Source: a virus (Duplodnaviria; Heunggongvirae; Uroviricota; Caudoviricetes). From it: a DNA stretch of 21,482 nt. The stretch is taken from positions 1 through 21,482 of the IMG/VR virus record IMGVR_UViG_3300017989_000062; one strand, 5' to 3'. The notes below the pieces were generated by a model. The model was not told where the DNA came from. It ran no database searches and was given only the letters and a program-made list of their open reading frames with translations. The number at the start of each line of letters is the position of its first letter. The first letter of the stretch is position 1. Below are positions 1,153-19,844 of the stretch, piece by piece. The translations under genes and the position numbers were made by a program.

Positions 1153-1241
1153 TGGCGGTGAGGACAGGATTTGAACCTGCAAGAGCTGTTAACTCAATCA
1201 GTTTAGCAAACTGACGCCTTTACCGACTCGGCCACCTCACC
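1153..1241 (-). tRNA. tRNA-Ser(GCT)
   Basis: Cloverleaf; anticodon arm TCAGT-TTGCTAA-ACTGA; long variable arm; G73 and CCA. Confidence 0.95.
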
Positions 1242-1380
1242 TGTATGTTAAAAAAAATGCCATTATAACTAACAACCATAAAAACATTTCAGGCCTCACA
1301 CCAGCAACCATTGTATTTCTAATTGCCAGCCACCATAACCGCATGAACTTCCAATAATACAACTCAAGTAATTTAAACAT
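1237..1380 (-). CDS. Possible 47-aa hydrophobic protein (MFKLLELYYWKFMRLWWLAIRN...)
   Basis: ORF fills the gap between hsp20 and tRNA-Ser; no clear RBS; TGA stop lies inside the tRNA 5' end. Confidence 0.35.
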   Translation of the reverse strand: MFKLLELYYWKFMRLWWLAIRNTMVAGVRPEMFLWLLVIMAFFLTYR

Positions 1381-1381
1381 A

Positions 1382-1399
1382 GGGACTCACGGTCAGTCA
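1382..1399. repeat. Inverted repeat arm downstream of hsp20 (GGGACTCACGGTCAGTCA)
   Basis: 17/18 reverse-complement match to 1956-1973. Confidence 0.9.
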
Positions 1400-1407
1400 G
1401 ATAGATG

Positions 1408-1935
1408 TTAATTGATGTCGATTGTGAGAGAACCTTTTCTTACCTCAACCTTTTCTTTCTCGAAGGTGAGTGTTAATATACCGTTCTCAAATACTGCTGC
1501 AACACCGTTGGTGTTGATTTTCTCAGGGAATTTGATAACTCTCTTAAAAGTCCTTTGAGAGACTTCTTGCATGAGATATCGTCCCTTTTCCTCTTGTTGA
1601 TCTTCTTTCGTTGCTTGCAAGAATAATACATTATCCTTGAGTTCAACATGGATGTCATCTTTTGAGAAACCAGCAAGAGCGAATTCAGCAATGTACTGAG
1701 TGTCAGTTTCTCGAATGTTGCCTTTGGGTAAAGTTGATCTTGGCTGCATACGTTTAAATATCTTCTTTGTCACTGGTGGTGTTACCCAACCATCATCAAA
1801 GAAACTTCCAAATGCATCACCAAATGTTTCGAACAGTCCTTCGAACTGGTCGAAGAGATCATCAAAACGATCAAAAGCAACGAGTCCATCCATTGGATCT
1901 GACTTCTTTACTAGATCTTTTGTTTCTTTACTCAT
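1408..1935 (-). CDS. hsp20: Small heat shock protein, Hsp20/alpha-crystallin family
   Basis: LAGFSKDDIHVEL, FKRVIKFP, AVFENGILTL motifs; start moved to ATG 1935 (CAGGAGGA RBS) because the longer ORF runs into tRNA-Asp. Confidence 0.92.
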   Translation of the reverse strand: MSKETKDLVKKSDPMDGLVAFDRFDDLFDQFEGLFETFGDAFGSFFDDGWVTPPVTKKIFKRMQPRSTLPKGNIRETDTQYIAEFALAGFSKDDIHVELKDNVLFLQATKEDQQEEKGRYLMQEVSQRTFKRVIKFPEKINTNGVAAVFENGILTLTFEKEKVEVRKGSLTIDIN

Positions 1936-1955
1936 GGTCTTTCCTCCTGTTTGAG

Positions 1956-1973
1956 TGACCGACCGTGAGTCCC
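1956..1973. repeat. Inverted repeat arm upstream of hsp20 (TGACCGACCGTGAGTCCC)
   Basis: Pairs with 1382-1399. Confidence 0.9.
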
Positions 1974-2017
1974 AAATTTTAGTTATTGTTGATTTAAACA
2001 TTTTTGATTTCTTTCTA

Positions 2018-2094
2018 TGGCGGCTCCGACCGGGTTCGAACCGGCAGTAACGCCGTGACAGGGCATCGTGTTGACCGATTAACACTACGGAGCC
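2018..2094 (-). tRNA. tRNA-Asp(GTC)
   Basis: Anticodon arm ATGCC-CTGTCAC-GGCGT; T loop TTCGAAC; GCCA end. Confidence 0.95.
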
Positions 2095-2114
2095 TAAAAT
2101 TGGATTTTACTAAT

Positions 2115-2138
2115 AGAGGGGAGTTTTGTCTTCCCTCT
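2115..2138 (-). terminator. Hairpin, possible terminator or processing site
   Basis: AGAGGG...CCCTCT stem downstream of the small ORF; weak U tract. Confidence 0.4.
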
Positions 2139-2164
2139 TTAACCAAGAAGGAAGTCAGACTATC

Positions 2165-2287
2165 TTAAGATGTGATTCCTTCGTGGGTTGTTGGTTCAAT
2201 ACTATCTGTTGCTGGAACCATATAACCGGTATGTGCGCAGGCGTTCTCACTAAACCATCTCGGTGATTTTAATTTGAGTGCTTGCAT
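2165..2287 (-). CDS. Possible 40-aa peptide (MQALKLKSPRWFSENACAHTGYMVP...)
   Basis: GGAGG RBS 5 nt before ATG; AAGAACA promoter-like motif upstream. Confidence 0.45.
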   Translation of the reverse strand: MQALKLKSPRWFSENACAHTGYMVPATDSIEPTTHEGITS

Positions 2288-2311
2288 TACTACCTCCACA
2301 TACGACTATTA

Positions 2312-2327
2312 TTTATATTATGTTCTT
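2312..2327 (-). promoter_or_regulatory. Candidate phage promoter motif AAGAACATAATATAAA
   Basis: Similar AAGAACA + A/T motifs at 12348-12360 and 19875-19890, all upstream of minus-strand units. Confidence 0.45.
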
Positions 2328-2341
2328 GTTACAAATGAATA

Positions 2342-2668
2342 TTACACTTCTGTTTGTTTCTCGGGTTCGACTAGTTTCCAACCCTTCTTTTTCATATCCT
2401 TTTTGATCTTTGAGTGTGTTTCTGGAATATCCTCACAATACGAAACCCTAATTGAATCGTGAATTAAAATTAACTCAGCTCTGGTATCATATAACAAAGA
2501 TTCAATCCAGAAATGTTCTTTATTTTCTAATAACAAAGATGTGTGAAGAACAGGCATATAAAGAAAGTCATCATATTTCTCAAAATGATATCGAACATCT
2601 TTAGATCCACTGTTCTCGCGAATGTAAACTGTTTTGATTAGTTTTGTAGTTATCAACCCCATTGACAT
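2342..2668 (-). CDS. Hypothetical protein
   Basis: 108 aa ORF with GAAAGGA RBS, directly after tRNA-Ser. Confidence 0.7.
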   Translation of the reverse strand: MSMGLITTKLIKTVYIRENSGSKDVRYHFEKYDDFLYMPVLHTSLLLENKEHFWIESLLYDTRAELILIHDSIRVSYCEDIPETHSKIKKDMKKKGWKLVEPEKQTEV

Positions 2669-2677
2669 TCCTTTCAG

Positions 2678-2764
2678 TGGCGGCGGGAACAGGAATCGAA
2701 CCTGCTACGCTTTTTTAGGACGCCCGACTTTTCGAGAGTCGTTATCCCCATGGATGACCCCGCC
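2678..2764 (-). tRNA. tRNA-Ser(CGA), atypical short D arm
   Basis: CGACT-CTCGAAA-AGTCG; D arm ATCC-ATGG-GGAT; long variable arm; G73 CCA. Confidence 0.88.
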
Positions 2765-2766
2765 TT

Positions 2767-2852
2767 TGGTGGCTAAGGAGGGAGTCGAACCCTCACGCCC
2801 AATGGACACTAGATTTTGAATCTAGCGCGTCTGCCAGTTCCGCCACTCAGCC
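2767..2852 (-). tRNA. tRNA-Leu(CAA)
   Basis: CTAGA-TTCAAAA-TCTAG; long variable arm; A73 CCA. Confidence 0.95.
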
Positions 2853-3101
2853 TTGTTTTATTCGAATACCTGACCAGTTATAACCGCCTTCGCCCAGCAT
2901 TTTCTTTGCTGTCTCTCGCTCTTCTGGGTCTTTCCAAATAATGTAATGGCCATTGGCATCACAAAGAGCTTGCATTCCTTTTTCAACATTTTCCCAACAC
3001 ATCATACCTGGATGACTGCAATTTACCGTAGAATGGTCTAACGGGATTTCTGTAAAACCTTTACTCTCGATATCGCTTGCAAATGATAACTGACTGCCCA
3101 T
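2847..3101 (-). CDS. Hypothetical protein
   Basis: 84 aa ORF, GGGAGA RBS; TGA stop inside tRNA-Leu 5' end. Confidence 0.7.
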   Translation of the reverse strand: MGSQLSFASDIESKGFTEIPLDHSTVNCSHPGMMCWENVEKGMQALCDANGHYIIWKDPEERETAKKMLGEGGYNWSGIRIKQG

Positions 3102-3119
3102 TTATGTTTCTCCCTTCTC

Positions 3120-3377
3120 CTAGTATACTTTCACTCTCGTTAACTTTTCACAAGGAACACAAGTAAGACCAAGACCAGATTGATTGGCTGTACCAGTTTT
3201 CCTGCTTGCAATAGTTGCAAAACATAATCCAGTTCTTGAATCTTTAAAGTAAGTTAATTCCGTTGCCATTTTGATAGCATGGTCTCCATCAATTTTTGAA
3301 GGTTCCACTGAACATCCTGTAAGACTCAAAGACATCACCAAACCCATACACAATACCGCTAACAATACATATTTCAC
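3120..3377 (-). CDS. Putative lipoprotein
   Basis: Hydrophobic signal peptide ending in lipobox LTGC; GTG start, GAGG RBS. Confidence 0.75.
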   Translation of the reverse strand: MKYVLLAVLCMGLVMSLSLTGCSVEPSKIDGDHAIKMATELTYFKDSRTGLCFATIASRKTGTANQSGLGLTCVPCEKLTRVKVY

Positions 3378-3427
3378 TTTTACCTCGCTTTCATTCTTAC
3401 TTTGGAGAAATTAGGATCTTGATATTC

Positions 3428-3580
3428 TTATGTTACTTCCCAAGATTTCAATTCTTCAACTCTCACCCAACCACATTCAAAACACGTTGTGACTTTTTTG
3501 AATTGGCCGTCAGGTATTGTTTCCGCAATTCCATTACACTTATGACAAGTTGGTTCTACAATCCAATGAGATTGCTCCAT
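3428..3580 (-). CDS. 50-aa zinc-ribbon protein (CHKC...CFEC), absent from ORF track
   Basis: ATG overlaps upstream stop (TAATG); two CxxC motifs. Confidence 0.7.
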   Translation of the reverse strand: MEQSHWIVEPTCHKCNGIAETIPDGQFKKVTTCFECGWVRVEELKSWEVT

Positions 3581-3780
3581 TATCTTCTGCCTTTCTTTTT
3601 CTGTTTTTGTTGTCCAACGCGAATTTTATTTTTCTGTTCTTCTTCGATTTTTGTATGAGTAGCCATGTTACATTTTCCGAGTCGCCACTTTGCTTTTGGA
3701 TATAAATATACAGAACAATACCCTTCAGCAACTCGGATACAACCCTCGCACTCGTCTACTACCGGTAGTTTTTCTTCCAT
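3580..3780 (-). CDS. PxxKW family cysteine-rich protein
   Basis: PVVDECEGC...YCSVY..PKAKW..G.CNMATH with basic tail; AGGAGGA RBS. Confidence 0.8.
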   Translation of the reverse strand: MEEKLPVVDECEGCIRVAEGYCSVYLYPKAKWRLGKCNMATHTKIEEEQKNKIRVGQQKQKKKGRR

Positions 3781-3791
3781 TGGTCCTCCTT

Positions 3792-4169
3792 TTACATCCA
3801 GTGACCAAAATCATTGAGATGAGGAATATCAAACTCATATTCATCACCACCCCACTGATATGGTTTTTCTTTTGTAGTTTCCTCTTGTGTTACTTCTGGA
3901 TTTTGCTTCTTTTGATAAGCTTTTACCCATCTTGAATTAGGATTAGTTGATGTACAACTAACCAGTTCAATCTCATCACGCCAATCAACTGTTTCTTCCC
4001 GTTTCCATTTAAGAGATGCAAAACATCTGAAACATTGATCTGGTAACTCATCCTCCCAAACTTTAACTGGTTTGACAGGGTCATGTTCTAATCTATGCGC
4101 CAAAACTGGCGCTCCACAAACAGTTCATGTATCATCAGGAACAATAGCCTGTAGTATTCGCATGAACAT
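3792..4169 (-). CDS. Candidate selenoprotein with UxxC...CxxC (125 aa, in-frame TGA at codon 15)
   Basis: AGAAAGGA RBS and ATG 4169; MFMRILQAIVPDDT-TGA-TVCGAPVLAHRLEH continues in frame into the 3792-4103 ORF; SECIS-like hairpin follows. Confidence 0.7.
4097..4112 (-). promoter_or_regulatory. Bacterial SECIS-like hairpin GCGCCA-GUUU-UGGCGC
   Basis: Perfect 6-bp stem starting 12 nt after UGA (4127-4125); loop begins GU, 18 nt from UGA. Confidence 0.65.
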
Positions 4170-4183
4170 AGATTCGTCCTTTC

Positions 4184-4379
4184 TAATGGGAAATATATTT
4201 CACATTAACATACAAAATTGGCTATAACGGGAAATATATTTCACATTATAGCAATTTCAAAAATGGGAGTTAAACTCCCCATTAAGCGAGGTTAAGGGGT
4301 GTTATAACACCCATTTTCACTTTTCGTTAATGGGAGTAAAAAGGGGTGTTAACCCATAAAAAGCGAGCTAACACCCCTT
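4184..4379. repeat. Non-coding palindrome and repeat cluster
   Basis: 20-bp direct repeat GGGAAATATATTTCACATTA (4188-4207, 4229-4248); palindrome GGGTGTTATAACACCC (4297-4312); 11-bp IR 4341-4351/4369-4379. Confidence 0.85.
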
Positions 4380-4397
4380 AAAACACCTGTTATAAAA

Positions 4398-4485
4398 TGG
4401 TGCGACTGAGAGGAATTGAACCTCCACGGACTTGCGTCCACTAGATCCTAAGTCTAGCGCGTATGCCTAGTTTCGCCACAGTCGC
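4398..4485 (-). tRNA. tRNA-Leu(TAG)
   Basis: CTAGA-CTTAGGA-TCTAG; variable arm GGAC-GCAA-GTCC; ACCA end. Confidence 0.95.
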
Positions 4486-4492
4486 ATAGTTA

Positions 4493-4579
4493 GGTGCTAG
4501 AATCTACTCATACTACCCTCAAGCAATGTACCGCGCGATATACTGCTGTCTCGTTTAGTCATGTTGCAGCTCTAGCACC
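4493..4579 (-). ncRNA. Candidate rod-like structured RNA element
   Basis: Nested stems GGUGCUAGA/UCUAGCACC, CUGC/GUAG, CAUGACUA/UAGUAUG, AGCAGUAUAUC/GGUACAUUGCU. Confidence 0.4.
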
Positions 4580-4982
4580 AAGCTGACATTAAAACTTCTT
4601 TGACGTCATTTCCGTCTGCTTTTCCTTTGAGGTCCTTCATGATTGGACCCATTGCTTGCATCTTGTTTTTAAACTGAGACAGATCGACGTTGTCAGTTAT
4701 ATGTTTGAATATTTCATCTTTTGACATCATTTGAGGTAAATAAAATTCAACGATCTCAAGAAACGTTGTTGGTTTTCCATCTCCGATAACCTGGAGTTCA
4801 TTCTTTCTGAGTTTTCGGAGAATACCAATCATTTCTTCTTCCGTTGCTTCCTCCCCAGCCTTTTTGTTCAGCCTTGGAATCTCTCCGAGTATGACTCGAA
4901 TGGCATCTTTTCGATCTTGGTCATTTGTCATCATTGCAAGTTTCAATGCAACTCTGAGTTGTGTTTCAGTTAAACACATCAT
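4572..4982 (-). CDS. yqeY: GatB/YqeY domain protein
   Basis: LKLAM...IRVILGEI...EFYLPQMMS..EI...MGPIMKDLKGKADG pattern. Confidence 0.88.
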   Translation of the reverse strand: MMCLTETQLRVALKLAMMTNDQDRKDAIRVILGEIPRLNKKAGEEATEEEMIGILRKLRKNELQVIGDGKPTTFLEIVEFYLPQMMSKDEIFKHITDNVDLSQFKNKMQAMGPIMKDLKGKADGNDVKEVLMSAWC

Positions 4983-5605
4983 CGTCTCCGTCCTTTCTTT
5001 TTCTTTCCCTTGCCGCCTCTACTCGGAATATGGAGTCGAATTGCAATGTCTCCAAGTGTTCTCAAGACTGCCATGTTCTGTTTGTATACTTGAGGGTCAA
5101 GATTCCTACAACAATGTTGATATTCCGGAGAATCAAGCCATTCAATATATTTCATATTGCCTCTTGTCTTGTTACATCGTCGACATGCTGAAACAAGATT
5201 CTCTTCAATACTTGGTCCACCATCTTCCCACAAGACCAGATGGTCAACTGTTAATGGTAAATCATCTCTTCCACAATATCGACATTTGTATCCATCACGT
5301 TTGTATACACGCCATGACACCATTTGATCGATTTGTCTTGCTGATTTACGAAGAATGATTTTAACAAGACCTGTTTCATCTTTACTCAAAACTTCTGTCT
5401 CTTGAAGATCGCTCTGTCGTAAAAAGGCTTTCCAGTCCTCATACGTCAACTCTAACCATACTAAATGGTCTAAGTCTAGTTCGGGAAGAGGAACCAGATA
5501 GGTGTTATCATTATCAGAAAGCATAATACCTGACATTTGAATGTCAGTCCCAAATTTTAATAGATCAAAGTCCTCCATTCGCTTGTGGCTAATGTCCACT
5601 TTCAT
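4979..5605 (-). CDS. HNH endonuclease with uncharacterised N-terminal domain
   Basis: RDGYKCRYCG...TVDHLV...GG...NLVSACRRCN..RG; start at ATG 5605 (GAAAGGAGA RBS), longer ORF overlaps tRNA. Confidence 0.85.
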   Translation of the reverse strand: MKVDISHKRMEDFDLLKFGTDIQMSGIMLSDNDNTYLVPLPELDLDHLVWLELTYEDWKAFLRQSDLQETEVLSKDETGLVKIILRKSARQIDQMVSWRVYKRDGYKCRYCGRDDLPLTVDHLVLWEDGGPSIEENLVSACRRCNKTRGNMKYIEWLDSPEYQHCCRNLDPQVYKQNMAVLRTLGDIAIRLHIPSRGGKGKKKKGRRR

Positions 5606-5619
5606 TCTCCTTTCAAAAA

Positions 5620-5707
5620 TGGTGGGCAAGGCGGGAGTTGAACCCGCACAGAGTCAAGCTCCGCAAGATTTTAAGTCTTGTGTGTCTACCAGTTTCACCA
5701 CTCGCCC
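5620..5707 (-). tRNA. tRNA-Leu(TAA)
   Basis: CAAGA-CTTAAAA-TCTTG; long variable arm; ACCA end. Confidence 0.95.
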
Positions 5708-5714
5708 ATTAAGT

Positions 5715-5828
5715 TTACTTTTTCTTTAACTCCAGTCCATAATTAAACCACCACGACAATCCTTGTTTAATTTTAATCCAAAACCACAACAGATTATCAA
5801 ATACTTTCACAACCAAAGATTTCTTCAT
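5715..5828 (-). CDS. Possible 37-aa peptide (MKKSLVVKVFDNLLWFWIK...)
   Basis: GAGGGAG before ATG; fills gap before tRNA-Leu. Confidence 0.35.
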   Translation of the reverse strand: MKKSLVVKVFDNLLWFWIKIKQGLSWWFNYGLELKKK

Positions 5829-6603
5829 CTTGCTCCCTCATACGTTGGACGAGTTGGTCTTCCATTTCTAACTCTCGAGTGATCTCATCACAAATCTTTT
5901 CAATCTTCTCAACTAGATCAGGTTTAATCAACATGATTGATCCAATAGCTATTTCTCTAACTCCAAGAAATTTAATTAAGTATTTAAGTTCGTCTATATT
6001 TGTGAACGAGCACCCAGACACATTCCAACCCTTTTTAATGAGGTGTTTCAAAAACCACCAATTTTCAAACTGAGCACCTTTTCCAGAAACTGCCCAACCA
6101 TCTCTAAACCAACTTTTCTTCCACACTGAATTCAATCGAATACCTTCAATTCGATCAAGGTCTTCAATTTTCTCGTCGAATTCATAATCACAACTTCCAA
6201 CTTTTAACCAAATTGGATGTCTTGATTCTGGTATTTGATGAATCTGTATCTTACGAAGTTTTGTATTGGGACATGAGATGTTAATTTCAATTCCTTTAAT
6301 CTCAAGTTTATCTAACTCGGAGACTATATAATCAACTTCTTCTTGGGTCCCTGCAATCGAAACAATTGCTCTTTCATTGGGTTTATAAAATTTTTCTTTC
6401 CAAATTTGAAATCCGGGATTGTGTAAAGCTACTTGGTTATATATAGATTTATTCCATCTCCATATTCTCCACGGATGTCCATTTTTGGGGTGAAGTGTTA
6501 TTGTTTTTGTGACAAAGGGAAATTTTGGAAATTCAAATAAATAATGCCACATATACCCTTCACCGTAATATCCCATTGCTCCTGCAGAATATACATATTT
6601 CAC
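5797..6603 (-). CDS. Dihydroorotate dehydrogenase-like FMN protein (divergent)
   Basis: TKTIT..P..G.P.R, N..L.NPG, VSIAG, EINISCPN, VSG motifs; GTG 6603 start after GGGAG is inferred. Confidence 0.75.
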   Translation of the reverse strand: MKYVYSAGAMGYYGEGYMWHYLFEFPKFPFVTKTITLHPKNGHPWRIWRWNKSIYNQVALHNPGFQIWKEKFYKPNERAIVSIAGTQEEVDYIVSELDKLEIKGIEINISCPNTKLRKIQIHQIPESRHPIWLKVGSCDYEFDEKIEDLDRIEGIRLNSVWKKSWFRDGWAVSGKGAQFENWWFLKHLIKKGWNVSGCSFTNIDELKYLIKFLGVREIAIGSIMLIKPDLVEKIEKICDEITRELEMEDQLVQRMREQDEEIFGCESI

Positions 6604-6607
6604 ATGT

Positions 6608-6892
6608 TCACTCCCAGTTAATGTGTACAGGATGGTTCGGACTTCTCCATTGAACTCCTTTAGGAGTTTTACCACATTTTTCACAAACAAAATATTCCGA
6701 ATTTCTTACAGTGATTTTCGATACTGAAAATACAGCACCACAGTGTTTGCAATCTTCTATAAGATATTTTTTCTCTTCTGGTTTGTGTCTTTGACGATCT
6801 ACTCTGAAAATATAACACTCATCGTCAAATTCACCTTCAATCCAACAATGTTCAATCCTAAAACACATCTCTTCAACAACGTCTCTCTGCAT
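6608..6892 (-). CDS. Zinc-ribbon hypothetical protein
   Basis: CKHC...CEKC; start trimmed to ATG 6892 (AGGAG RBS) outside the tRNA. Confidence 0.65.
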   Translation of the reverse strand: MQRDVVEEMCFRIEHCWIEGEFDDECYIFRVDRQRHKPEEKKYLIEDCKHCGAVFSVSKITVRNSEYFVCEKCGKTPKGVQWRSPNHPVHINWE

Positions 6893-6915
6893 AGGCCAGT
6901 TGCTCCTTTTAGAGA

Positions 6916-7005
6916 TGGTGGCGGAAGTGGGATTCGAACCCACACGAGCTAATGCTCACAAGATCCTCGGTCTTGCGCGGCTGCCATAGTTTACGCCATT
7001 CCGCC
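6916..7005 (-). tRNA. tRNA-Leu(GAG) with C at position 33
   Basis: CAAGA-CCGAGGA-TCTTG; long variable arm; ACCA end. Confidence 0.9.
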
Positions 7006-7011
7006 ACTTCG

Positions 7012-7641
7012 TTAATCTGGAATTACAACATCCATCTTTTCCATAATCTTTTTGAAATATTGTGGGTTGACTCCAAGAGCTAACGAAGCTTTTTTAAGAT
7101 CACCTTTACAAAGCTTAATAGCAATTTCAATATACCGTTTTTTCGTCATATCTTGAAAGGTTGCCCATAACATTCCTTGGTGAAATAAATCGACTAATAC
7201 ATCGTCTAATTTTTCTTCAGTAGATGATTTATTCGTCTCATCTTCGATAACTTCACCATCTTGTACATCTCCATCATATGTGATGAGTTTAGTTTGGACT
7301 TCATTCAATTCTTGTTGAAGTCTTTTAATTTCTTGTTGATCTGCAGTTATCTGAGCAGGTCGCACTTTACATTGACCAGTTAAAAGTGCTTCGTGAAGAC
7401 TATCAACAGTCCTCAGAGCTTCAATCACATTGACTGCCAACTGCCGATTATCAACATGGTTTTGAAGCTGTATGATGTTAACTCCATCCTTCTTAATGGC
7501 GCTTGTAAGGCTAACTCCAAGTGTTTGTGTTAATGACACATCTTTGTCTTGTTCTGCTGGAGTCGTTGATTCCTGAAGAATCTGATACAACGAATCTTTC
7601 AATTCACCTACTTCAGTTGGCACAATGTTTGCCGCCGGCAT
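7012..7641 (-). CDS. Protein with coiled coil and C-terminal Fis-like HTH
   Basis: KRYIEIAIKLCKGDLKKASLALGVNPQYFKKIM resembles HTH_8; GAAAGGAG RBS. Confidence 0.7.
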   Translation of the reverse strand: MPAANIVPTEVGELKDSLYQILQESTTPAEQDKDVSLTQTLGVSLTSAIKKDGVNIIQLQNHVDNRQLAVNVIEALRTVDSLHEALLTGQCKVRPAQITADQQEIKRLQQELNEVQTKLITYDGDVQDGEVIEDETNKSSTEEKLDDVLVDLFHQGMLWATFQDMTKKRYIEIAIKLCKGDLKKASLALGVNPQYFKKIMEKMDVVIPD

Positions 7642-7669
7642 TTTTTAACTCCTTTCGTTATTCTAAAAG

Positions 7670-8029
7670 TGGTGGAGGTGCCGAGAGTCGAACTCGGGTC
7701 CAACGATGTTCCATATCAGTATCTACGCTCATATCTGCACTACTATTCCAACTTTGGGGGCGTGGTGCAGAACTTCCCAAAGAGGTTTGCTGGTAATCTT
7801 TATCTAAATGGTCCCAGCACCGTATCTAGATGCATCTCTCTAGTCGACGCTCAATTCCAGATAGAGAGAAGTCTCTGGATTGAACGAACCCGCTTTAAGC
7901 AGCGAGTCTAACTTCAGTATAATAATCGTCTGCAGTTATGTTTAAGTAGTCAATTTTTAACGCAGCCTTTTGACCAACTGCGGAGCGCAACCTTTACTTC
8001 TCCATCCCTGTCGATACCTTTTCACCCCC
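7670..8029 (-). ncRNA. ssrA: tmRNA, tag (A)ADDYYTEVRLAA
   Basis: GGGGGTG/CACCTCC-A-CCA acceptor with G3-U70; T arm CCGAG-TTCGACT-CTCGG; ATAACT then GCA resume codon, tag frame 7933-7895. Confidence 0.96.
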
Positions 8030-8393
8030 GTTTTAGTTTAAGCCGATACCATAAATCTCCAACTTCTATTTCTTCTTTTTTATGAACTACTTCAAAACAT
8101 AATAATTGTTCTGGTTTAGTTGTCACTAAAGGACTTTCTTTAAATATTTGCCTAAAGTTTCTAACGTTGTTGTGAATATTACTGTCCATAGAAAATTCAA
8201 AAACTTCTTTTAATTCATGACATGTAATTTCAAAATCTAAACACATTTCTTCCCAGAAAGAGGAGTATTTGAGATGATCTATGATATGTTCAGTGCCGTT
8301 ATTCAATTTAGCGCTGATTGTAAGTACAGAATCAAGATCAAAAAACCAATCTCGATAATCTTTAAATGGTTTGATTAAGATTTTGCATTCCAT
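8022..8393 (-). CDS. Hypothetical protein
   Basis: 123 aa ORF, GGAGGA RBS; TGA stop inside tmRNA 5' end. Confidence 0.7.
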   Translation of the reverse strand: MECKILIKPFKDYRDWFFDLDSVLTISAKLNNGTEHIIDHLKYSSFWEEMCLDFEITCHELKEVFEFSMDSNIHNNVRNFRQIFKESPLVTTKPEQLLCFEVVHKKEEIEVGDLWYRLKLKRG

Positions 8394-8394
8394 T

Positions 8395-9354
8395 CTATCC
8401 TCCGAAGAGTTTCAAATTCATATTCTCTATTCTCGTTACTAACTGAGCTATTTGAGTATAACCATAGTTAACTAACCTTTGATTAACTTCTTTCTCTGCT
8501 TCTGCCCAGGTTCTATTTAGATCTTGTCTAATCATCTTACAAAAGTTCCAAGTAAAAGCTCCTTGAACTTTATTATTGAAATAACCTTCATAAGAGTAAT
8601 TATCTTCAGCACAACCAGCAAATAGAATGTGTCTTTGATCAACAATTCCAACAGTCGCTTTTTGACCAAATCGTTTGATTTTAGTTCTCCCAACAAGCTG
8701 AGCTGCCAGATGTTGTGGAGGCGCTAAAAATCTAATTTTACGTTGTTGAAATGTATTAATCCTTGATAATGCTCTTGAAACAGTTCCGCTATGACAAGAA
8801 TCACAAATAAATGTCATTTGCGCTCCTTCTGGAACTTTCTTGAAATAGGAGGCAAGAATGTCATCAGTAAATGGATCGTCAAAATTCAGATCTGTGGGAC
8901 AGATAATTTCATCCATTCCATCTGCTTCATCCGCGTTATTATCAGGAACTTGTGAACCATGACCAGAAAATGACATAACAAGTTCATCACCAGGAATAGC
9001 ATTATCTACAAGATTAGCCAAACCTTTAATAATGTTGGATTTTGTTGCCTCATAATCAAATATCAATTTTATGTTTTGAGTTTGAAAATCAAACTTAGAA
9101 ACTAAAATATTGTCTATGTTTAGAGCATCTTGTACACACCCGCTTAAATCACAATCGAATGCTGGATCATATTTATTTACTCCAATGAGCAACGCTCTTT
9201 TCTCTGGCTGTCGTGTTGGTGTTTCTACAACAGGTTGAGATACAGATACTGTTTCTGGAGGTGCAACAACAACTTCACTCTTCATCATACTAATCGCGTC
9301 ATTTATTTGTTGTTGAGCAGCTTCTAATTTTTGAAGAATGACAGTTTTGTTCAT
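8395..9354 (-). CDS. Metacaspase / peptidase C14 family protease
   Basis: KRALLIGVN, FSGHGSQ (His) and DSCHSG (Cys) catalytic dyad, GAFTW. Confidence 0.93.
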   Translation of the reverse strand: MNKTVILQKLEAAQQQINDAISMMKSEVVVAPPETVSVSQPVVETPTRQPEKRALLIGVNKYDPAFDCDLSGCVQDALNIDNILVSKFDFQTQNIKLIFDYEATKSNIIKGLANLVDNAIPGDELVMSFSGHGSQVPDNNADEADGMDEIICPTDLNFDDPFTDDILASYFKKVPEGAQMTFICDSCHSGTVSRALSRINTFQQRKIRFLAPPQHLAAQLVGRTKIKRFGQKATVGIVDQRHILFAGCAEDNYSYEGYFNNKVQGAFTWNFCKMIRQDLNRTWAEAEKEVNQRLVNYGYTQIAQLVTRIENMNLKLFGG

Positions 9355-9363
9355 TGCTACTCC

Positions 9364-9966
9364 TTATTTTAGGAGATCCACAGGAAATTCAGTTTCTTTT
9401 CCTGGCTCCCTATCATACGCGGCTTGGAGAACTTTTTTGACGTCCTCTATATTTGAGCCGTCTGTTTTTAATACGTGTTTATTAAACCAAACTTTGTTGC
9501 CTTCAGTCATTGGCATTATCCCAAACGCTCGTTTACGCCATTTTAACCAATCCTCCATATAAAGGGGATAGTCATCAACTAGGACCCGTCCATAGACCAG
9601 TCCTTTGTTCTCAGTTATGGTTATAGGGACTCCGCCAATATGTTTCTTACACCATTCAACTTTTTCTAACCAAGCATGAGGTTTTGTGGTAGGTCCTTTT
9701 GTTAACACATTAATGGTGAAACCAATTTGAGCTGCAGCATTCATAATGTCAAAACCGAGTTTCTTTGGTGGTAAATTTCTCCACCAACCTCTTTGCTGCA
9801 TAATCAAATGTTTACGACGCTGCAACCAGATCGGAGCTGTTTTATCATGTACAGTTATTGGTTTCGGGTCTTCAGGTCCTTGAATATCTAATAGATCTTG
9901 TAGCATTCTCCCGTCAAAATCTACAAGAGTATCATCCATGTCAAATAATGCTATTTGTTCTGCCAT
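9364..9966 (-). CDS. 5'(3')-deoxyribonucleotidase, NT5C-like HAD protein
   Basis: FDMDDTLVDF, WWRNLPP, EKVEWC, VLVDD motifs. Confidence 0.85.
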   Translation of the reverse strand: MAEQIALFDMDDTLVDFDGRMLQDLLDIQGPEDPKPITVHDKTAPIWLQRRKHLIMQQRGWWRNLPPKKLGFDIMNAAAQIGFTINVLTKGPTTKPHAWLEKVEWCKKHIGGVPITITENKGLVYGRVLVDDYPLYMEDWLKWRKRAFGIMPMTEGNKVWFNKHVLKTDGSNIEDVKKVLQAAYDREPGKETEFPVDLLK

Positions 9967-9983
9967 TCAAATTTCCTTTCGTA

Positions 9984-10073
9984 TGGCGGCGGGAACAGGA
10001 TTTGAACCTGTGGGGCTATTACACCCACTGCCTTTCCAAGACAGCACCATAAACCAGACTCGGACACCCCGCC
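9984..10073 (-). tRNA. tRNA-Ser(GGA)
   Basis: CTGTC-TTGGAAA-GGCAG; long variable arm; GCCA end. Confidence 0.95.
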
Positions 10074-10232
10074 TTATTCTATTAACTCAATGTCATATTC
10101 ATGCCAATCCAATAATCTCAATGGCTTAGAAGCAATGACGGATAATATCAACGTATCTTTCCCAGGTCTCAAAATTTTTTCTTTTCCTGTTTCTTTCTCG
10201 GTGATTTTGACTCGCACATTGTCAATATTCAT
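10074..10232 (-). CDS. 52-aa hypothetical protein (MNIDNVRVKITEKETGK...)
   Basis: AGGTG RBS; ORF fills the gap between two tRNA-Ser genes; TAA abuts the tRNA. Confidence 0.6.
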   Translation of the reverse strand: MNIDNVRVKITEKETGKEKILRPGKDTLILSVIASKPLRLLDWHEYDIELIE

Positions 10233-10252
10233 TGTTCACCTATTCAATAAAA

Positions 10253-10339
10253 TGGCGGAGAAGACAGGAATCGAACCTGCTACGCTTTTTCAGGGCGCCC
10301 GAGTTTTCAAGACTCGTTATCCCCATGGATGACCTCTCC
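10253..10339 (-). tRNA. tRNA-Ser(TGA), atypical short D arm
   Basis: CGAGT-CTTGAAA-ACTCG; same D arm as 2678-2764; G73 CCA. Confidence 0.88.
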
Positions 10340-10346
10340 TTATGCA

Positions 10347-10856
10347 TTAGAATACCCCTAACTCTTTCAGAATGTCGTCGATTCCAAAACGTTTCATTCT
10401 CAACATTAAGAATTCCATAATAGTTGGTTGAATTGGACGTCTTGGCAATCTCATCTTAGCTTGTCTTGGTGTTCTGTTTCCCTTGTCATTGTTACAAGGT
10501 TTACAAGCAGCCACGCAGTTTTCCCAAGAAGATATTCCACCTTGTCCTCTTGGTGTTACGTGATCAATAGTTAACTTTTGTTTCTTAGTACCACAATATT
10601 GACAAGTGAAATTATCTCGATAGAGAACATTTCTTTTACTGAAAGGAACTTTACTTCGGTAGATTGTCCGGACTAAATGAACCAGGCGGAGAACTTTTGG
10701 AACGGTTCTCTCCCACGCATTTTCAAGACTTTTGATAATCTTTTTTGAAGCTTTGACAATTTCAACTTTACCTTTTTCAATAAGGCACATCGCCTTTTGC
10801 CAACTGATTGTGTTCAAGAAACTGTAGTCTGCATTTAATAAAATTACTCTATTCAT
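10347..10856 (-). CDS. HNH endonuclease (McrA-like)
   Basis: VILLNADY, RDNFTCQYCG, LTIDHVTPR..GG...WENCVAAC..CN..KG; ATG 10856 with GGAGG RBS. Confidence 0.9.
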   Translation of the reverse strand: MNRVILLNADYSFLNTISWQKAMCLIEKGKVEIVKASKKIIKSLENAWERTVPKVLRLVHLVRTIYRSKVPFSKRNVLYRDNFTCQYCGTKKQKLTIDHVTPRGQGGISSWENCVAACKPCNNDKGNRTPRQAKMRLPRRPIQPTIMEFLMLRMKRFGIDDILKELGVF

Positions 10857-10857
10857 A

Positions 10858-11568
10858 TCAGACCTCCACATGTTTCCACGATCTACCTGTTTTGATATCG
10901 TAAACCGTGGCTGCAGAAACATTATAGTCTCTTGCGATTGTTTTTAATCCTTCAAAATTAGAAAGCCGGTTCTTAATTTGTATAACTTGATCCTCAGTCA
11001 ATTTAGCACTAGAATTCTTCTCACCAAATTTTACACTATTCGTTCCGGGTTGAAATCCGCTTACTTCAATATGATTCCATGAACCACCAGAACTAATACT
11101 TGCGATAGCAGTTCCAGAAACACCATATTCTTTACACAAAACTGAATGTAGTTCACCATCTCGTAATCTTTCTTTTATTTTTCTAACATCATTTCTTGTT
11201 AATTTTCTACTATTAGTTCCTCTTTCCTTAGCAGTTTGAAAAGCTCGTTCTCGTTCAAGTTTCATTTCTTGTTTTGTTAGGAGAGACCGATGTATTTTCA
11301 TATGTTTTGATCTGGTAACTACTTCAAGATTTTCTAACTGGTTATCACTAGGAATTTGATTCTTATGATGTACAATTTCATTTGTTGAAAGTTTTCTTTT
11401 TAGTTGAGTTTCAACTACTGCTCTATGAACAGGTTTTTCTTTTCTTTCATTCCCCATGTAATATTGATAACCATTTTTGTCTGTTACGATTTTATGACAC
11501 TTTCGTTTGTGCATTGTAAACCCGCTTTGTGATGTGCAGATTCTTCCACATTTTTTACAAACGAACAT
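10858..11568 (-). CDS. HNH homing endonuclease with C2H2-like finger and two HTH repeats
   Basis: CKKC...H...C; VHR...VHHKN....DNQLENLE; duplicated KLT..(D/Q)V..IK.RL...Y.VS...I..G.SW.H. Confidence 0.85.
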   Translation of the reverse strand: MFVCKKCGRICTSQSGFTMHKRKCHKIVTDKNGYQYYMGNERKEKPVHRAVVETQLKRKLSTNEIVHHKNQIPSDNQLENLEVVTRSKHMKIHRSLLTKQEMKLERERAFQTAKERGTNSRKLTRNDVRKIKERLRDGELHSVLCKEYGVSGTAIASISSGGSWNHIEVSGFQPGTNSVKFGEKNSSAKLTEDQVIQIKNRLSNFEGLKTIARDYNVSAATVYDIKTGRSWKHVEV

Positions 11569-11591
11569 ACCAATACCTTTCTTTTAAAAGA

Positions 11592-11703
11592 TTCGGGGAC
11601 AGTGGGAGTTCCTGCAAATCCATGGGTGGATATTTAACGGCTCTGCCAGCAGTTACTCCACTGCCCATTCAACTGATGTCCGAAGACATACACTGCCCCC
11701 AAA
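11592..11703 (-). ncRNA. Candidate structured ncRNA of unknown family
   Basis: 13-bp terminal stem, cUUCGg hairpin AUGUC-UUCG-GACAU, further internal stems; GC-rich; directly 3' of tRNA-Gln. Confidence 0.55.
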
Positions 11704-11707
11704 ATTG

Positions 11708-11784
11708 TGGAAGGCGGGGTGGGAGTCGAACCCACAAATGTCCGAGGGTCAAAACCTCGCGCCCTACCGTTGAGCTACCCGCCT
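11708..11784 (-). tRNA. tRNA-Gln(TTG)
   Basis: CGAGG-TTTTGAC-CCTCG; A1-U72, U73, CCA. Confidence 0.88.
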
Positions 11785-11785
11785 A

Positions 11786-12010
11786 TTAATATTCTATGAA
11801 AAGACTTCGACTGAAGTTTGTTTTGGAAGGATCTGGAGATACTACGTTGATAGGACACTCCGTAAACTCAGTAAAAGATTCTCGCTCAAGAGATCGTGGA
11901 GCACAATCACATTGAAACATTGATTGAAACTCAGCAATAGCTTGGCAACCTTCCAAACAATCTGGAAACTCCTTTTTATGTCTATCACATTCCCTACACG
12001 GACTCTTCAT
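11786..12010 (-). CDS. Small Cys-rich hypothetical protein
   Basis: MKSPCRECDRH...PDCLEGC; GGGGAGGA RBS before ATG 12010. Confidence 0.7.
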   Translation of the reverse strand: MKSPCRECDRHKKEFPDCLEGCQAIAEFQSMFQCDCAPRSLERESFTEFTECPINVVSPDPSKTNFSRSLFIEY

Positions 12011-12038
12011 AGGCAATCCTCCCCTTATGAAGTGAAGT

Positions 12039-12115
12039 TGGCTCCGAGGGCGGGACTCGAACCCGCATGAGACACTGGTTAACAGCCAGCCGCTTCACCG
12101 TTGAGCCACCTCGGA
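12039..12115 (-). tRNA. tRNA-Asn(GTT)
   Basis: GCTGG-CTGTTAA-CCAGT; U1-A72; GCCA end. Confidence 0.93.
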
Positions 12116-12174
12116 ACATGGGTTAATCCGTTGGAAGTTTCAAAATATATGTTAAGTTACCTTCTCTTTTACTG

Positions 12175-12252
12175 TGGTAGTGCGAGGAGGATTTGAACCT
12201 TCCGTTAATCGATTATAAGTCGACCGTTCTGACCAGACTGAACTACCGCACC
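12175..12252 (-). tRNA. tRNA-Ile(TAT)
   Basis: GTCGA-CTTATAA-TCGAT; A73 CCA. Confidence 0.88.
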
Positions 12253-12258
12253 ATAGAA

Positions 12259-12330
12259 TGGCAGGCCTGCGAGGAATCGAACCCCGTCCTACTGTTTTGG
12301 AGACAGTTTGGTAACCATTACCTCAGACCC
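12259..12330 (-). tRNA. tRNA-Trp(CCA), atypical short D arm
   Basis: ACTGT-CTCCAAA-ACAGT; D arm GGTA-ATGGT-TACC; 72 nt; GCCA end. Confidence 0.85.
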
Positions 12331-18767: not shown

Positions 18768-19293
18768 CTTCCGTATATTCTGGGTTTAACCAAAATGTCA
18801 CTCTTGGTTGCGACGCATGTTGAAATGAATGCTTTGCCAAAAACAACTGACACCCTTTTTTCCATATTCTTCGTTTTGTTACTCGATCAGTATGATATGT
18901 AAGATATGGAAATACTGAATCATTAAATCTTCCCATCTTAGGATCATTATTAAATAACTTTTCTCTTCTGCACCATAACAACCCACGAACCAGTTCTTCA
19001 AAATCATGGTTGTTAAATAGATATTCTTCATTGTGGTCATCAAAAACAATTAGAGGACCGATTCGAGGTTCCTCATAACTAACTGTTTCAATTACCCAAT
19101 AGTTATGTTGCCAGTCCATACCATTGACCCAAATCTCTGCATAATATTGATCAGTTGGATCTCCAAATCTAATGCTAGATGGGTATGGCCAATTTTCAGA
19201 AGCTAAATGAAATTGTTCAGTAGCTCTTTTTACTAACTCAACACCTGCTAAAAAATGAGTTTTTTCTTTAGATGTTGTGTTACAGTAAATCAT
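18760..19293 (-). CDS. Hypothetical protein
   Basis: 177 aa ORF coupled to the QueC-like stop. Confidence 0.7.
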   Translation of the reverse strand: MIYCNTTSKEKTHFLAGVELVKRATEQFHLASENWPYPSSIRFGDPTDQYYAEIWVNGMDWQHNYWVIETVSYEEPRIGPLIVFDDHNEEYLFNNHDFEELVRGLLWCRREKLFNNDPKMGRFNDSVFPYLTYHTDRVTKRRIWKKGCQLFLAKHSFQHASQPRVTFWLNPEYTEGG

Positions 19294-19844
19294 TATAGAT
19301 CTCCATATCCGCTAAAATATTCCTCTTCTTTTATTCCAAATCCTTTTAATAAGGTTATTGCTAATTCTTTTGAAATACCAAGTAATGGAGCTTCTACTTT
19401 AATTTCTTTCGGTCCGCCATATTTTAACATTTCATTTACACGCACGAAATATTCTTGATAACAATCAGGAAATAATCCAAGACGATCTGACCAATCACTC
19501 CCAATCCAAATAGTATCAATATTCATGCTTTCAGCAATGCTAAATGCGATACTAATGAACATCGTATTACGACCTGGCACGTACATCTCATGAACTTGTC
19601 CAGTCTCGTTCTTCTCACCACTTCCAGTCAAACCACTGTTTACACCAAGATTCTCGATTGATACAACTCGATGTGGAATCTGCAATTTGTTCAACTGAGC
19701 CGAAGCAGATTCTAATTCTTGACCGTGGAGTTGACCATAATTAACAAGCACTCCATAGGGTTTCTTACCTGCTTTAATTGCCATTTCAACCATTAACCTA
19801 CTATCAGCTCCACCACTAAACAGAATAACTAAATTTTCAGACAT
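19293..19844 (-). CDS. queC: QueC-like (7-cyano-7-deazaguanine synthase family) protein lacking the C-terminal zinc motif
   Basis: PP-loop FSGGADS, YGQ.H..E, YVPGRN..F, FPDC, APL; ends at 183 aa. Confidence 0.8.
   Translation of the reverse strand: MSENLVILFSGGADSRLMVEMAIKAGKKPYGVLVNYGQLHGQELESASAQLNKLQIPHRVVSIENLGVNSGLTGSGEKNETGQVHEMYVPGRNTMFISIAFSIAESMNIDTIWIGSDWSDRLGLFPDCYQEYFVRVNEMLKYGGPKEIKVEAPLLGISKELAITLLKGFGIKEEEYFSGYGDL

Follow-up and report, generated by a model that had tools for sequence, protein, structure and literature searches.

Among viruses, the selenoproteins known so far belong to the poxviruses molluscum contagiosum and fowlpox and are glutathione peroxidases captured from the host, as described in the available part of PMC8310308. 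For huge phages, the available text of PMC10747093 reports tRNA-Sec genes and only suggests selenoproteins. The words 'phage', 'virus' and 'viral' do not occur in the accessible portion of the 2026 inventory of 119 prokaryotic selenoprotein families (PMC13188914), and no report of a phage-encoded selenoprotein was found in the literature searched; metagenomic candidate lists could include phage contigs. The consensus for the bacterial SECIS element (bSECIS; Zhang and Gladyshev, restated in the same portion of PMC13188914) comprises a loop of 3-9 nt with a G in its first two bases, a stem of 4-16 bp, a spacing of 16-37 nt and an MFE of -7.5 or lower; in the available part of PMC1976440, the standard for a selenoprotein is a UGA aligned to Cys in at least two homologues.

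Here we describe a small gene in a 21,482-nt stretch of viral DNA (the window), the first 21 kb of a linear record of 149,482 bp (36% GC, 48% complete by CheckV) that was found in sediment and seawater metagenomes. We propose that the gene probably encodes a 125-residue phage selenoprotein in which the UGA at codon 15 is read as selenocysteine (Sec) by the host. Its features are:

3792..4169, minus strand: candidate selenoprotein gene, full ORF of 125 aa if the TGA is read through
4184-4177, minus strand: Shine-Dalgarno sequence (SD) AGAAAGGA, 7 nt ahead of the ATG at 4169
4127-4125, minus strand: in-frame TGA, predicted selenocysteine, codon 15 in the context U-T-V-C-G
4097..4112, minus strand: candidate bacterial SECIS upper stem-loop GCGCCA-GUUU-UGGCGC, with the loop G 18 nt past the TGA
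4101..4103, minus strand: TTG start of the 103-aa form chosen by gene callers, inside the hairpin
4023..4034, minus strand: second knuckle C46-F-R-C49, 27 residues on from the first pair

Gene frame and start signals

The translation of 125 residues begins MFMRILQAIVPDDT-U-TVCG. The TGA at 4127-4125 is the sole internal stop, and the frame is open to a TAA at 3794-3792; with the TGA read through, it contains U15-x2-C18, C46-x2-C49 and C72, and its C-terminal half is acidic and polar. The locus has the proper start and the in-frame UGA in an otherwise intact ORF that are expected of a selenoprotein gene. An earlier note on this DNA had claimed a strong ribosome-binding site and an ATG at 4169 in frame with a UGA at the first Cys position of a CxxC, with a CFRC downstream, and re-reading of the frame bears out both claims. 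The SD of this ATG gives a duplex of -9.9 kcal/mol with a generic anti-SD, a strength equalled in 32 of 115 genome ORFs, and that of the TTG at 4103 is weaker (-5.6 kcal/mol). Codon adaptation is 0.62 before the TGA, 0.72 in the hairpin region and 0.77 in the remainder.

The TGA is unlikely to be a sequencing error. A 550-nt contig spanning 3658-4207 occurs with no differences in four of four metagenome runs, so that the check for an assembly error at 4125-4127 returned TGA in every assembly, and the X4 run again shows this contig at relaxed likeness; run X5 gave no cover of the site, an outcome that carries no weight either way. These four assemblies are contigs, not reads, and three may be source data of the window; they therefore argue against a lone assembly slip and do not show fixation of the allele. 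The site may be polymorphic, since contigs do not prove a fixed allele.

The hairpin behind the TGA

The hairpin begins 12 nt past the TGA, with arms GCGCCA at 4112-4107 and UGGCGC at 4102-4097 enclosing the loop GUUU at 4106-4103. This stem, spelled out in the earlier note, is a perfect 6 bp, and both the MFE and the centroid structure contain it in each of the four folded windows (shuffle z-scores of -0.98 to -3.42, varying by window). The wobble-rich lower stem of that proposal fared less well: it forms in two of the four windows, is replaced by other pairing in the remaining two and is not fixed. With a loop of 4 nt opened by G then U, a stem of 6 bp, a spacing of 18 nt and -11.5 kcal/mol, the site lies within all the published bSECIS constraints in our own implementation of the model, consistent with the bacterial SECIS geometry claimed for it. 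We infer that SelB binds the loop; pairings of SelB and SECIS can be specific to a species.

Our implementation is permissive, and passing it is worth about tenfold: under the loose model, a hit follows 57 of 569 Cys codons, 309 of 3000 codons picked at random (about 10%) and 2 of the 40 first Cys codons of CxxC motifs. Strength sets this hairpin further apart. Within the ORFs of the genome, 67 of 36096 codons and a single one of the 569 Cys codons are followed by a G-loop hairpin at -9.5 kcal/mol or better, and such a hairpin arises in 86 of 20000 trials when this peptide is re-encoded with synonymous codons at genome usage, at a threshold chosen post hoc with the hairpin already seen; at -5 kcal/mol the counts are 905 of 36096 and 18 of 569. 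Taken over the entire 48-nt segment, the MFE is not exceptional (863 of 5000 resamplings). The stem's two Ala codons are both GCG, which makes up 11% of Ala usage, and the gene has no other GCG codon. Among the 6546 TGA triplets of the 149-kb contig, five combine an SD-led start and at least 30 open codons with a GC-rich G-loop hairpin, and nine combine an SD-led start with UxxC or CxxU; the TGA at 4127 is the only one with an SD-led start, such a motif and the hairpin together.

Genomic setting and relatives

The record encodes a terminase, a ribonucleotide reductase and two large RNA polymerase beta-subunit-family proteins, and ARAGORN finds 12 tRNAs and one tmRNA on it; on these grounds the virus is a jumbo phage.

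G000:C1 73830-76844 and 108780-111479, plus strand: RNA polymerase beta-subunit PHROG matches, two separate large proteins
7670-8029, minus strand: tmRNA with tag ADDYYTEVRLAA

The polymerase matches suggest two multi-subunit polymerases in this phage; phiKZ-like phages have two multi-subunit RNA polymerases. A tRNA cluster at 1153-12330 holds 13 tRNAs skewed to Ser (four) and Leu (four), including a tRNA-Ile with a TAT anticodon; one of these Leu tRNAs, at 6919-7005, was detected by Rfam only (anticodon GAG, by eye). Host-like genes on the minus strand encode a caspase-domain (C14) peptidase (8395-9354), a dihydroorotate dehydrogenase (5797-6690), YqeY (4572-4982), Hsp20 (1408-2085) and QueC (19293-19844). 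Elsewhere in the record, at least five plus-strand ORFs (G000:C1 93416, 98710, 99261, 123887 and 126333) carry the motif MK(Y/F)K.SE(V/I)TNSSS.SF at or near the start, and would by this motif be a paralogous family with a common N-terminal peptide.

As for the decoding machinery, neither selA, nor the SelB wing, nor the AIRS domain of SelD, nor a tRNA-Sec above the cut-off was found in the contig, which is 48% complete, and no tRNA-Sec above the cut-off was found in nine related viral records. This agrees with the earlier suggestion of Sec machinery from the host or encoded elsewhere; host machinery would be needed for decoding. A single hint from one neighbouring gene, falling short of a host assignment, suggests a Desulfobacterales-like host: the only taxonomically named relative looked up for the PxxKW protein encoded next to the candidate gene is from Desulfobacterales, and the representative of its cluster is 56% identical to the phage protein. 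Deltaproteobacteria are rich in selenoproteins according to the available part of PMC5029168. Plasmid tblastn and tmRNA blastn, run to find the host, returned no match.

The candidate gene leads a cluster of three small genes rich in Cys, which is preceded by a palindrome array:

4184..4392, no strand assigned: palindrome array of 20-26 nt units, between a tRNA-Leu and the Cys-rich gene cluster
4273-4245: sigma70-like site within the palindrome array
3580..3780, minus strand: PxxKW/DUF6811 cysteine-rich protein gene, second of the three, with its SD directly 3' of the TAA of the candidate gene
3428..3580, minus strand: 50-aa ORF with two CxxC pairs, third of the three, kept in the sibling phage

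The latter two genes (3428-3780, minus strand) form a conserved Cys-rich pair, and at least 18 viral contigs contain PxxKW relatives; the term 'PxxKW' was not found in the literature searched. Most of the palindromes have GGG/CCC arms and AT-rich centres. Those at 4184-4207 and 4225-4248 are near-identical, and the 24-nt unit has no other copy in the contig at up to four mismatches. The array is probably the control region of the gene cluster, and its palindromes might serve as operators, as hairpin promoters for a phage RNA polymerase or as an origin; the five promoter-like sites found, against 3.4 +/- 1.5 in shuffles, are not a significant excess.

The nearest sibling phage, L012, is about 80% identical in nucleotide sequence; it conserves the structure of the array in five copies (L012:2721-2990) and retains the SD of the candidate gene and the PxxKW gene, and lacks the candidate gene itself. 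The gene's place in L012 is taken by about 111 nt, which contain two further palindromes and, read by eye, a 16-codon mini-ORF that sits behind the same SD and ends in TGA. A clean 397-nt deletion in the sibling was considered and rejected, as a 264-nt contig carries the roughly 111 other bases there; this contig agrees with L012 at eight of eight substitutions compared by eye. A 151-nt contig from run X1 has a palindrome directly ahead of the PxxKW start. Since the gene is missing from the sibling and other bases stand in its place, it reads from these alignments as an accessory insertion at a variable site.

The earlier note had looked to homologues with Cys or a conserved TGA at this column. 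The search yielded no true homologue and a single borderline clostridial repeat protein with Cys there. A HMMER search of 1.84 billion representatives returned two proteins, the gene's own 103-aa truncated form and a clostridial surface protein (E 7e-4), whose TCTVCG repeat places a Cys against the TGA; the repeat inflates this score, which is counted as resemblance, not homology, and by that resemblance the TGA region would read like a Cys knuckle. No true homologue came from a word-index search (two candidates, one of them the truncated form), from viral, metagenome and genome contigs (three loci of 18-20 residues, judged chance) or from INPHARED phages, and PDB sequences gave no true match (best E 0.018). 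Degenerate DNA patterns gave two loci out of frame with the first pattern, none with the second and 27 with the third, none of them homologous, and the candidate gene is in none of 20 + 9 related viral records. Databases store it solely as the 103-aa form, which is gene-caller output. With no true homologue, the gene has no support from a Cys/Sec alignment or from covariation of the hairpin, and by the standard in the available part of PMC1976440 the gene is a candidate only.

A scan for TGAs covered 788,365 nt, namely the phage's own contig and 35 partly overlapping stretches from nine related records. It gave 33,067 TGAs, of which 308 have an SD-led start and at least 25 open codons. A hairpin at -5 or better is present in thirteen entries, of which two are duplicates that come from near-identical records; the strongest hairpin among all 308 sites is that of the TGA at 4127. 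One other entry lies in a Cys motif, and the remaining 11, which have no Cys-type motif, are treated as background.

L119:2521-3069, plus strand: second candidate phage selenoprotein, 182 aa, in record G002 (IMGVR_UViG_3300009149_005307)

G002 is related by synteny, with 21 of 160 ORFs in common at a median identity of 47%, and its gene is unrelated to the first candidate. The TGA stands at codon 13 in CPEGHRW-U-PIKKKC, followed 25 nt on by the G-loop hairpin CCCUG-CGGGU-CAGGG. The TGA column is Cys in all three homologues returned and in another three members of the cluster; one more member, which is shorter, starts past the motif. No second TGA copy was found among 11 loci, 10 of which match the C-terminal part only, so the TGA is known from a single record. 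The gene has no NCBIfam family, and its C-terminal motif is common to many large phages and to G000 near 37,034-37,108. A second TGA-at-Cys gene with a hairpin, met in an unselected scan, would make Sec decoding in the hosts of this clade more likely.

Readings of the TGA and described systems

The Sec reading draws on the SECIS geometry, the strength of the hairpin, the lack of an assembly error and the absence of a phage tRNA-Sec, and just 4 of the 64 other one-step changes that would create a stop in the gene begin at Cys codons. What the first proposal of this reading did not gain is comparative support. Against it stand the lack of a homologue and the choice of the window from very many for this pattern. 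We regard the gene as a real, well-formed phage selenoprotein candidate from a new orphan family, with strong internal signals, no conservation support and one strain, and with the G002 gene as a second candidate in a relative.

The rival that survives best, which we consider unlikely, is that a recently acquired accessory Cys-knuckle gene was inactivated by a TGY-to-TGA nonsense change and that the hairpin is incidental. That the gene is missing in the sibling and in the 29 related viral records searched makes it dispensable; it is seen in a single strain with no conservation, and one codon in ten passes the loose SECIS model. Such an inactivation would require two coincidences, however, a stop that falls on a Cys, as in about 5 of the 65 routes, and the hairpin following it (1 of 569 Cys codons at the strict threshold and 18 of 569 at -5 kcal/mol). 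The remaining frame is, moreover, intact and of normal codon usage, and the G002 gene, with its own TGA at Cys and its hairpin, came from an unselected scan of relatives.

It is distinctly improbable that a 14-codon leader peptide ends at the TGA and that the 103-aa protein restarts at the TTG at 4103, its start masked by the hairpin until a passing ribosome opens it, in a form of translational coupling. A GGAG lies 8 nt ahead of the TTG, the 103-aa form is the only one in databases, and the mini-ORF of the sibling indicates that short TGA-ended leaders occur behind this very SD. Yet the leader is in frame with the ORF, and the codons from TGA to TTG encode T-V-C-G-A-P, with which a CxxCG knuckle is complete as the partner of CFRC; of the neighbouring starts tested, none has a weaker SD than the TTG, which lies within the stem, and database starts, as gene-caller output, are no evidence. 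Decoding of the UGA as Cys or Trp, whether leaky, SECIS-guided or under a phage-wide code change, is the least probable: Desulfobacterales carry a selC* tRNA-Cys and a second SelB (available part of PMC5389517), but genome-wide TGA reassignment is excluded by the 26 of 115 non-overlapping ORFs that end in TGA, by the sibling, in which 8 of 19 orthologues of TGA-ending genes carry TAA or TAG at the same position, and by the lack of a suppressor tRNA, no UCA anticodon being found among the 13 ARAGORN genes or in the extra Rfam tRNA at 6919-7005.

Under the selenocysteine reading, the UGA at codon 15 would be decoded through host SelB and tRNA-Sec, which the G-loop hairpin 18 nt downstream is predicted to recruit. 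Sec15, Cys18, Cys46 and Cys49 would then bind a metal, most likely Zn, ahead of an acidic and probably disordered C-terminal tail. When selenium is short, translation would stop after 14 codons, making the output selenium-dependent. The protein could serve as an accessory, early-expressed host-takeover or regulatory factor of the three-gene Cys-rich cluster; at about even odds, it would be a small accessory protein that probably appears early and works on a partner in the host.

Proteins with two CxxC pairs spaced by 27 residues and a Gly after the first pair most often coordinate a single Zn. The spacing of a C4 zinc ribbon is found here in U15/C18 and C46/C49, and only with the TGA read through; given Sec, the chance that the four residues form one metal site of zinc-ribbon type, with Zn the most likely metal, appears to be about even. 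This site has no profile or structure support: an AlphaFold2 single-sequence model has a mean pLDDT of 37.9 and is unusable. Together with the second CxxC, the UxxC looks like part of a four-ligand metal knuckle, not a thioredoxin-type redox motif. A likeness to rubredoxin was tested and rejected, as there is no PF00301 match and the protein scores 4.7 bits against our own profile of 26 rubredoxins, a score reached by 260 of 2000 knuckle-fixed shuffles and ranking 23rd of 61 dual-CxxC segments.

The protein matches no Pfam, PHROG or NCBIfam family (Pfam at E 0.01, best E 0.13; NCBIfam at E up to 1). The earlier note had not recognised the family among known selenoproteins, and these scans, with no match to an NCBIfam or Pfam model, uphold it: the catalogued prokaryotic selenoprotein families with such models are excluded, in a scan that covered those of the 119 families of PMC13188914 (in its available part) defined by a Pfam or NCBIfam model. 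Sec may be a metal ligand in some families, according to the same text. It is conceivable, and no firmer than a tentative idea, that jumbo phages infecting sediment anaerobes rich in selenoproteins have repeatedly and independently put Sec into small Cys-knuckle proteins of their own, as a metal ligand and not as the catalytic residue of an enzyme, so that the output of phage genes senses the selenium and redox state of the host; the proteins meant in this doubtful generalization are the orphan gene described here and the CPxGxRW-U-PxxxxC protein of G002.

The case rests on one strain without homologues. If it is true, phage genes tap SelB/SECIS decoding of the host, gene callers truncate phage selenoprotein genes (as in the 103-aa entry stored for this one), and the uses of Sec extend to a non-enzymatic one, as a metal ligand.

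Among described systems, bacterial selenoprotein genes with a SECIS element inside the ORF share with this locus the UGA in UxxC, the 4-nt loop opened by GU, the 6-bp stem, the 18-nt spacing and an MFE below -7.5; the candidate differs from them in being phage-borne, in having neither a Cys/Sec homologue nor an NCBIfam or Pfam match, and in having no Sec machinery on the same DNA. Rubredoxin (PF00301) and C4 zinc ribbons likewise have two CxxC pairs 27 residues apart, the first as CxxCG, whereas the candidate has a CFRC without Pro or Gly, a long acidic tail and no significant profile match. The FmdB-family regulatory protein has a zinc-ribbon fold. In the available part of Table 1 of PMC13188914, FmdB (TIGR02605) is small and has Sec in an x-x-spaced pair, as here, but its motif is UxxU and it is cellular; OS_HP3 (NF041197) is small with paired CxxC, like the candidate, and is cellular, not phage. 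Poxvirus glutathione peroxidases, as far as the available part of PMC8310308 describes them, are alike in being virus genes that depend on Sec decoding by the host, and differ in using the eukaryotic SECIS and machinery and in being captured host enzymes of known function.
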